IMG/VR virus record: IMGVR_UViG_3300029305_003178
Span: 96,001 to 160,000 of that record
DNA: 64,000 nucleotides
Reading direction: 5' to 3' (one strand)
From: a virus
Lineage: Duplodnaviria > Caudoviricetes
The notes under the pieces are model-generated. The model was not told the DNA's origin. It searched no databases and saw only the letters and a program-made list of their open reading frames with translations. How positions within the stretch are numbered: the stretch's first letter is position 1; each line of letters begins with the position of its first letter. Below are positions 16,902-18,206 of the stretch, piece by piece. Position numbers and translations under genes: made by a program.

Positions 16902-18206
16902 TGATAATTAAAACATTTAGAATCATTGAAATTTTGCAATTATGTGATTCATTACTATATGGTGATATTTTTGTTTGTCTTGATTCATTAACCGCCTTTG
17001 AAATTATTCTTTGACAGGATTAAACATTAACGCTCGATGAAATATTTAAAAGCGTTGATTCATTACTCTATTCTGAAATTATTAGCTGTATTGATTCATT
17101 GTCTACCTATGACATTATTTTAGCAATTGATTCGTTGCGGTTCACTGAACTAATGAATGGTTTTGACTCATTTGTGACTCATGAAATAATTATGTATTAT
17201 GGTTCATTTTTGCAATTTGAAATTATGAATGGCGTTGATTCATTTAATTTTTATGAAATTATGATAATTAGTGATTCAGTCATACCATTTGAGATATTGA
17301 AGCATTTGATTCAATTGAGCAACATGATAGTTTTTTTTTAGATGATTCTTTTAATCGCATTGATATTGTAGTGTGTGATGAATCGTTTTAGAATAATGAA
17401 ATTATCTGTCTTCATGACCCATTAATTCGCTTTGATATTTTGGCATACGATGATTCATTCAAAGTTCCTGAAATAATGGAACGAATTGATTCATTATCCG
17501 AAAATGATATAATTATGTCTGGTGATTTCACATTCAATATCCGTGAAATTAAATTCCTCTGTGATTCGTTTTTTAGCTTTGAAATTATAGACTTCTGTGA
17601 CTAATTTGTTTTAATTACAGACTTTGTTTTTGGTTATGCGTTTAGATTTTACATTAGTGAAGGGTGAAATATTCTATTACTCTGATTCATTTGTTCCCAT
17701 TGATATCATGATATCCCATGATTTGATTGTCTATTATTCGTATATGATATTGTGGCATACGATGATTCTTTTGATCAATATGACATTTTATCTCCATGTG
17801 AATTAATTGTATCATATGATACATTTCCATGTCGTGAAATAGTAGTTACTCCTGATTCACTAAGTGTCACTGAGATAATTATGTACGATGGTTCATTTCT
17901 ATTCGATGAGAATGTACAGCTATATGATTCATTTTGGCATTGTGAAATAGTTCGAAACCGTGATTCGATTTTAATCATTTTCGCCTTGTGAAATCGTACA
18001 ACTCGTTGATTAAACTTTATTCATTCTTCTATAATGATGATTGTGCTGCTGCGTGATTCACTTATCACCCCTGAAATAATCGCCTATGATGGTTTATTAC
18101 TTGTCATCGAAAATATACTTTCTACCGATTCATTCGCACTCTATGAAATATTCAGGTGCCATGATTCATTTTTCGATAATGAAATAATAGCTTCTATTGA
18201 TTAAAT
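16902..18206 (-). repeat. TIGR-like dual-repeat array 2 (~33-35 units of ~36 nt), inverted relative to array 1
   Basis: Plus strand reads TGATTCATT-N9-TGAWATTAT-N9; minus strand e.g. aatgaatca tggcacctg aatatttca tagagtgcg; one ~45-nt interruption near 17610-17655. Confidence 0.9.

Follow-up and report, generated by a model that had tools for sequence, protein, structure and literature searches.

The locus described here raises the question of whether a tract of short alternating repeats in a phage genome specifies RNA, presents binding sites in the DNA or encodes protein. The tract extends over ~1.3 kb (16914–18206, minus strand) in a window of 64,000 nucleotides, which corresponds to bases 96001–160000 of a 227,229-bp IMG/VR phage record with 29% GC and to which coordinates refer unless stated otherwise. 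We interpret it as a dual-repeat TIGR array, the gene for a long precursor of guide RNAs, serving a TasA-type protein encoded at a remote site, and we put the probability of this reading at roughly 85%. The genome holds three TIGR arrays and a single tas gene, and the array considered here (array 2) is the largest and the best conserved of the three. It is flanked by a convergent gene encoding 159 aa (16373–16852, plus strand) and by a gene for a phage multisubunit RNA polymerase β′-like protein (18513–20099, minus strand), its upstream neighbor, which lies outside the system. The β′-like protein shares 37–39% sequence identity with its counterparts in the Bacillus phages BpSp and Goe21, the Staphylococcus phage S6 and the Listeria phage LPJP1, jumbo phages whose genomes include genes for multisubunit RNA polymerases and that we take to represent the AR9/PBS1-like group.

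Array 2 contains 31 well-formed 36-nt units, defined as those with a good score against a position matrix built on both repeats, and about four degenerate or expanded slots, which together provide about 35 two-part guides. This agrees with a preliminary description of the locus, in which some 33–35 minus-strand units with the two repeats of a second array in the window (array 1) had been counted. Read on the minus strand, the unit consists of AATGAATCA, 9 nt, ATAATTTCA (or ATAATATCA) and another 9 nt. At the RNA level, an edge repeat AAUGAAUCA is followed by a 9-nt spacer A, a loop repeat AUAAUUUCA/AUAAUAUCA and a 9-nt spacer B. Units are mostly spaced by 36 nt (the exceptions are 35, 39, 44, 46, and 54 nt), and most of them carry the single edge form AAUGAAUCA. 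The information content per column is 0.5–1.7 bits in the repeats and 0–0.4 bits in the spacers; a nearly invariant UCA precedes both spacers, and C8, T25, C26, and A27 are invariant. A UG is present in the edge repeat (within AAUG), whereas the loop repeat contains AUAA and has no G; the corresponding motif in the related phage G004 is AUAG. The array 2 spacers are unique except for one recurring spacer A (TCGTATGCC), and pairwise distances between spacers are those of shuffled spacers, apart from this repeated spacer A and two near-duplicate units in array 1. Both ends of the array are incomplete: in the first unit the edge repeat is 5′-truncated and reduced to its AAUCA half (ATTTAATCA, 18206–18198), and the last spacer B ends at 16918 and is followed only by AAUG (16917–16914), a 3′-truncated edge.

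Dual-repeat TIGR arrays are defined by two distinct, alternating repeats of 8–12 nt, spacers of ~9 nt and a unit of ~36 nt (PMC12045711). Array 2 has this architecture, with 31 units of 9 + 9 + 9 + 9 nt. A CRISPR array, which has a single 23–55-nt repeat and 25–50-nt spacers and is accompanied by cas genes, was considered and rejected, as array 2 combines two 9-nt repeats with 9-nt spacers. Matches to the position matrix cluster in three places only in the whole 227-kb genome; outside these clusters we find ~10 matches on both strands (versus 2–6 per strand in shuffled genomes), and the same pattern read backwards, used as a control, has no match in this genome. Contigs assembled from three further samples (JGI 3300032167, 3300024268, and 3300018878) match the whole locus with 100% identity, and array 2 is therefore not an assembly artefact.

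Array 1 (11702–12749, plus strand) is built from the same repeats as array 2 and has 18 well-formed units in about 29 slots. Array 3 is located outside the window, after nrdG, at genome positions ~200,540–201,110 (minus strand), and adjoins tas, from which array 2 is 87 kb distant. Arrays 1 and 2 together have 49 well-formed units, and 61 when array 3 is included. Counted as 36-nt slots, the figures are about 64 for the two arrays in the window and about 80 for all three, so that the more than 60 candidate guides previously proposed for arrays 1 and 2 are borne out at the level of slots. Next to array 3, the gene for anaerobic ribonucleotide reductase (L001 1407–4004, plus strand) carries an apparent intein-like insert (about CFSRNTEF...PTGN/C). 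A thymidylate-synthase-family gene (L001 6971–7813, plus strand) lies just upstream of tas on the opposite strand, and a 139-aa open reading frame that follows tas has neither a family match nor a convincing homologue beside other tas genes.

The tas gene (L001 5560–6822, minus strand) is the sole gene of its kind in the genome and encodes a protein of 420 aa, which scores 134 bits against the NCBIfam model NF052498 (TIGR-Tas system RNA-guided endonuclease; cut-off 100). The presence in one genome of a Tas above the family cut-off and of an array with the published dual-repeat anatomy turns the earlier label "TIGR-like" into a more specific assignment. Sequence searches of the PDB returned TasH (E = 2.6e-6) and TasR (E = 4e-6), whereas Pfam Nop (PF01798) had no match over the whole genome, the gene being found only by way of NCBIfam and the PDB. 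An AlphaFold2 model calculated with 29 homologues is all-helical and has a pLDDT of 80 (residues 1–23 and 36–50 are below 50). The top 11 PDB matches of this model in Foldseek are cryo-EM structures of TasH and TasR, followed by IS110-family recombinases and Nop-domain proteins. The NCBIfam, PDB and Foldseek matches together identify a Nop/IS110-C-terminal-like RNA-binding domain in Tas.

Tyr-399 and His-406 of Tas align with Tyr-289 and His-296 of SpTasH, which have been shown to process pre-tigRNA (PMC13421893), and His-406 is invariant among the 29 homologues. We could not detect a RuvC or HNH nuclease in Tas: there is no Pfam nuclease match, the N terminus cannot be aligned with the HNH domain of SpTasH, and the model is all-helical. 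The protein is thus of the TasA type. Its N-terminal extension of ~90 residues is missing in most homologues and is modeled with low confidence; it contains a basic segment, KKRRGRPPKK (with an AT-hook-like RGRP motif), followed by an acidic run. A second peculiarity is an insertion of ~45 residues (about 240–285) that interrupts the Nop domain.

[quoted passage not shown] The early promoter of phage AR9 has been experimentally defined as AAATATATATTAT-N6-G(+1) (PMC5312081). In our genome, TATATATTAT-N6-G occurs in 34 copies, compared with about 2 in shuffled sequences, and its AT-rich flanks are conserved, which gives substance to the proposal that the array has an early promoter of its own some 230 nt upstream. 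The motif also precedes tas and array 1; in the latter case it is found at 11170–11186 (plus strand), about 530 nt upstream of the array, with open reading frames of 52 and 110 aa in between. Relative to its promoter, each of the two arrays in the window reads AAUGAAUCA-first, as had been noticed before, and the tas-adjacent arrays of four genomes lie on the strand that codes for tas. A scan for sigma-70 promoters was discarded as evidence, because in this AT-rich DNA it is uninformative (71 sites, compared with 65.7 in shuffles).

Between the predicted start and the array we read from the sequence a leader of ~223 nt (18207–18429, minus strand), which has mini-ORFs of 4, 11, and 23 codons only and no minus-strand open reading frame of at least 40 aa. 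A strong AAGGAGG is followed in the leader by the ATG mini-ORFs of 4 and 11 codons and by the 23-codon ORF; this could specify a leader peptide or be meaningless. Across the array (1305 nt), none of the six frames has fewer than 23 stop codons or stays open for more than 105 codons, so that the promoter and the terminator indeed enclose no real gene. A terminator-like hairpin of 18 pairs with a T-run (16851–16892, minus strand) ends the array unit and would also serve the convergent 159-aa gene; a weaker plus-strand version is found at 16857–16886, and the terminator had been predicted to be bidirectional. Truncated terminal edges with a hairpin behind them are the published ending of a TIGR array, and hairpin terminators likewise close array 3 and all but one of the five G004 arrays.

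On the other side of the promoter, an inverted repeat with a short T-run (18470–18507, minus strand) can be recognized after the RNA polymerase β′-like gene. It is not among the calls of our terminator scan but, judged by its position and sequence, probably separates the polymerase gene from array 2's own promoter and insulates the two. The hairpins at 16851–16892 and 18470–18507 have a common core, GATATAC...GTATATC, and appear to belong to a family of repeated palindromes that serves as terminators in this phage.

In published tigRNAs, base pairs form between the two edge-repeat halves on either side of a guide (PMC12045711). We find this pairing reflected in the natural variation of the edge repeats. 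Position 6 of an edge and position 3 of the next copy downstream form A-U in 40, U-A in 11, G-C in 4 and U-G in 1 of 59 units, and are unpaired in 3. Position 7 and position 2 of the next copy form U-A in 55 and C-G in 2 units, and are unpaired in 2. Paired cells amount to 95.8% over the 59 units, compared with 76.6 ± 2.5% in shuffles, and double-sided changes number 18, compared with 3.4, although the array units are paralogues and these covariation counts not fully independent. None of 500 shuffles reaches the observed pairing values, and slid registers, which served as controls, all score far lower than the true register. Within one repeat copy, positions 3 and 6 are paired in only 28 of 61 units, and the constraint therefore joins the two ends of a 36-nt unit rather than a repeat with itself. 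Array 2 alone contributes three G-C and two U-A pairs at 6/3′ and two C-G pairs at 7/2′; both of its AGUG edges follow an edge with C7. As far as can be judged from sequence alone, natural compensatory variation at positions 6/3′ and 7/2′ demonstrates that the guide ends pair.

The same rule accounts for a peculiarity of the other two arrays. In array 1 (12164–12677) and array 3 (L001 4523–5076), AAUGAUUCA edges alternate with AAAGAAUCA edges without exception, which creates a 72-nt super-period; a U-A or A-U pair in each guide requires the two variants to alternate. Duplication of two-unit blocks could partly explain this alternation. In lengthened edge repeats (12 to about 27 nt), AAUG still stands directly after spacer B and AAUCA directly before spacer A, an arrangement that makes sense if spacer length is gauged from these motifs and the RNA is cut between them. 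The A and B spacers within a unit show slightly more complementarity than permuted pairs in array 2 (p = 0.008) and in G004 (p = 0.006); no such effect is seen among 268 units of 22 further arrays that have this edge repeat, and we place no weight on it. Rfam returned only sub-threshold chance matches.

Other readings of the locus have to be weighed against this evidence. Array 2 could have originated as a copy of the array beside tas and now be a decaying orphan, transcribed or not, that Tas no longer uses. Its distance of 87 kb from tas, the presence of several units that are degenerate or have expanded edge repeats, and the lack of an array at the syntenic site in relatives with ~60% protein identity would fit this scenario, and because four or five of the about 35 units are degenerate or carry insertions, some decay is possible. 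We nevertheless consider it unlikely that the array is defunct: both repeats and the exact 9 + 9 spacing are kept in 31 of the about 35 units, the compensatory changes in array 2 indicate continuing selection on RNA pairing, and it is this largest and best-conserved array that has a consensus early promoter and a terminator to itself. A sponge or decoy function for the array RNA, directed at a host RNase, at an RNA-binding protein or at Tas itself by titration, would be in keeping with the failure of our searches to return a target match and with the abundance expected if about 80 units are produced early. A sponge would have no need of unique, fixed-length spacers, however, and homologous systems guide DNA binding, which makes this option very unlikely.

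[quoted passage not shown] Dense, short conserved motifs in non-coding DNA and the near-palindromic TGAATCA could suggest such sites, yet the array strand is the tas coding strand in four genomes, the array is bracketed by a promoter and a terminator, and its anatomy is that of arrays which have been experimentally processed into RNA (PMC12045711). We hence regard the iteron model as highly improbable. The preliminary description had likewise favored an RNA product over DNA-binding sites; our preference rests on the two base pairs that covary between unit ends and not on transcription signals alone. Almost no credence can be given to the idea that the region encodes repeat proteins, represented by plus-strand ORFs of up to 80 aa with a 12-residue "DSF...EII" repeat. 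The 36-nt period is divisible by three, but the reading frame is disrupted where the spacing is 35, 39, 44, 46, or 54 nt, no constraint is seen in the variable parts, and we dismiss such a protein because of the stop codons present in all six frames.

The array as a source of guide RNAs, which we favor, suggests the following sequence of events. Early in infection, a virion-type RNA polymerase would start at G18430 and produce a transcript that spans the leader and the about 35 units and stops at the hairpin 16892–16851, as deduced from the promoter and terminator signals. The single Tas, expressed from behind its own early promoter beside array 3, would bind each unit and, by homology, cleave the edge repeat internally, at the junction of AAUG(A) and (A)AUCA, by means of the Tyr-399/His-406 dyad. 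As the covariation shows, two base pairs join the ends of each guide, one between edge position 6 and position 3 of the following copy and the other between positions 7 and 2. By analogy with published work on TasA, a Tas dimer with one guide would then read 9 nt on one strand of a DNA target and 9 nt on the other. We propose that this target may be host DNA or a competing mobile element, encountered early in infection. TasA proteins bind DNA and repress transcription under the guidance of tigRNA (bioRxiv 10.64898/2026.09.09.750476). Given that our Tas lacks a nuclease domain, it would probably bind the target and block transcription or replication.

We searched for such targets using spacer B joined to the reverse complement of spacer A, an arrangement derived from the published 3′ overhangs. 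Both B+rc(A) and rc(A)+B were compared with two control arrangements, allowing gaps of 0–2 nt and up to 2–3 mismatches. Neither the phage's own genome nor G004, the TIGR-less G001 or the unrelated, Tas-bearing G007 contained an exact match or an excess over controls. When two predicted 18-mers were run through IMG/VR, one gave a single gapped match (in a contig of 51% GC) and the other none, which is chance level. The GC content of the spacers is 33–41%, compared with 29% for the genome; this compositional difference fits foreign targets but proves nothing. Guides that spell out a ribosome-binding site and start codon were also considered and rejected, as only 6 of 61 predicted targets contain a Shine-Dalgarno-like 5-mer.

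Comparison with known systems places array 2 among the dual-repeat TIGR arrays that serve a TasA-type protein, which were first described in 2025; several shared features support this placement. As in the dual-repeat TIGR-TasA systems (for example, FpTIGR from Flavonifractor plautii; PMC12045711), repeats of ~9 nt alternate with two 9-nt spacers in 36-nt units, the terminal edge repeats are truncated and followed by a terminator, the effector is a nuclease-free Nop-domain protein, and the pairing of guide ends is backed by covariation. There are also differences. Published arrays flank tas and typically have 5–15 units, whereas array 2 is remote from tas and has its own promoter, and this phage has three arrays with about 80 slots. 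The box C motif is UCA here and CCA in the published systems, and for the UG of box D the array 2 loop repeat has an A in place of the G (AUAA compared with xUG). The N-terminal extension with its RGRP motif and the ~45-residue insertion are likewise additions of our Tas.

The best match to Tas in both sequence and structure is SpTIGR-TasH from the Salicola phage CGphi29 (PDB IDs 9W03, 9W04, and 21KL; PMC13421893), which is also phage-borne and in which the Tyr/His dyad for metal-independent pre-tigRNA processing is conserved. SpTasH, however, has an N-terminal HNH nuclease that cuts DNA, whereas our protein lacks HNH and RuvC domains and is only about 24% identical to it. In having guide arrays far from the effector gene, the phage resembles orphan or remote CRISPR arrays, whose guides are used by an effector encoded at another place in the genome; it differs from them by its two kinds of 9-nt repeat and by the split 9 + 9 spacers, and neither cas genes nor an adaptation module are apparent.

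To the published picture our analysis adds a remote array that has a promoter and a terminator to itself, a total of about 80 guide slots in one genome, an effector and arrays placed behind virion-polymerase early promoters, and natural compensatory variation for guide-end pairing. Published surveys looked within 10 kb of tas, and as arrays can sit tens of kilobases away, surveys so limited undercount guides. The natural function and the targets of TIGR-Tas, and especially of nuclease-free TasA, are still unknown (PMC12045711). A large guide repertoire and its effector are found here under recognizable early promoters of a phage group whose transcription is well studied (AR9/PBS1-like), and the presence of these promoters on arrays and on tas yields a testable hypothesis about timing, namely that the system acts at the onset of infection. 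More speculatively, and with considerable doubt on our side, AR9-like jumbo phages might run a dispersed, multi-locus TIGR program, in which separately promoted arrays and a nuclease-free Tas are fired by the injected virion RNA polymerase, ~80 different DNA-binding guide complexes form within minutes of infection, host genes or competing mobile elements are silenced in a multiplexed fashion, and arrays move between sites.

A scan of IMG/VR with the array pattern located the edge repeat in other jumbo-phage records as well, and the Tas model matched in four of the five records searched. G004, G007, and G008 have a Tas match above the cut-off and an array just downstream on the tas coding strand, whereas the G006 match, at 91 bits, falls short of the cut-off and is far removed from the array in that record. 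Arrays with this edge repeat were also found on at least 20 metagenome contigs. The preliminary description had suggested comparing related phages for conserved repeats with turnover of spacers. Contigs L075 and L079 conform to this, as they have both repeats in common with our phage and none of its spacers, but the comparison failed at the syntenic sites: relatives with about 60% protein identity have no array at the sites of array 1 or array 2, and the largest searchable one (67% complete) has no tas. In GTDB genomes the pattern gave isolated chance matches only and no clue to the host.

G004 (247 kb), the core proteins of which are 50–66% identical to those of our phage, shares with it the edge repeat AAUGAAUCA and a layout of multiple dispersed arrays (five across 170 kb) with one tas gene and an array adjacent to it. 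It differs in its loop repeat (AUAGUAUCA) and in the sites of its arrays, none of which is syntenic with those described here. Its early-promoter motif is also a different one, the motif used by our phage being present in only 5 copies. In the speculative program outlined above, arrays would shift from site to site and would expand when segments are duplicated and their spacers then replaced. Hints of such growth come from G004, in which one array contains an internal duplication of ~480 nt (13 units; L016 4965–5446 and 5641–6118) with 80% identity between the copies; some spacers are nearly unchanged between them, and others are wholly replaced. At a separate locus in G004 (157599–160139), an RNA polymerase β′-like gene is split by an intron- or intein-like insertion of ~970 nt, which is absent from the phage studied here.
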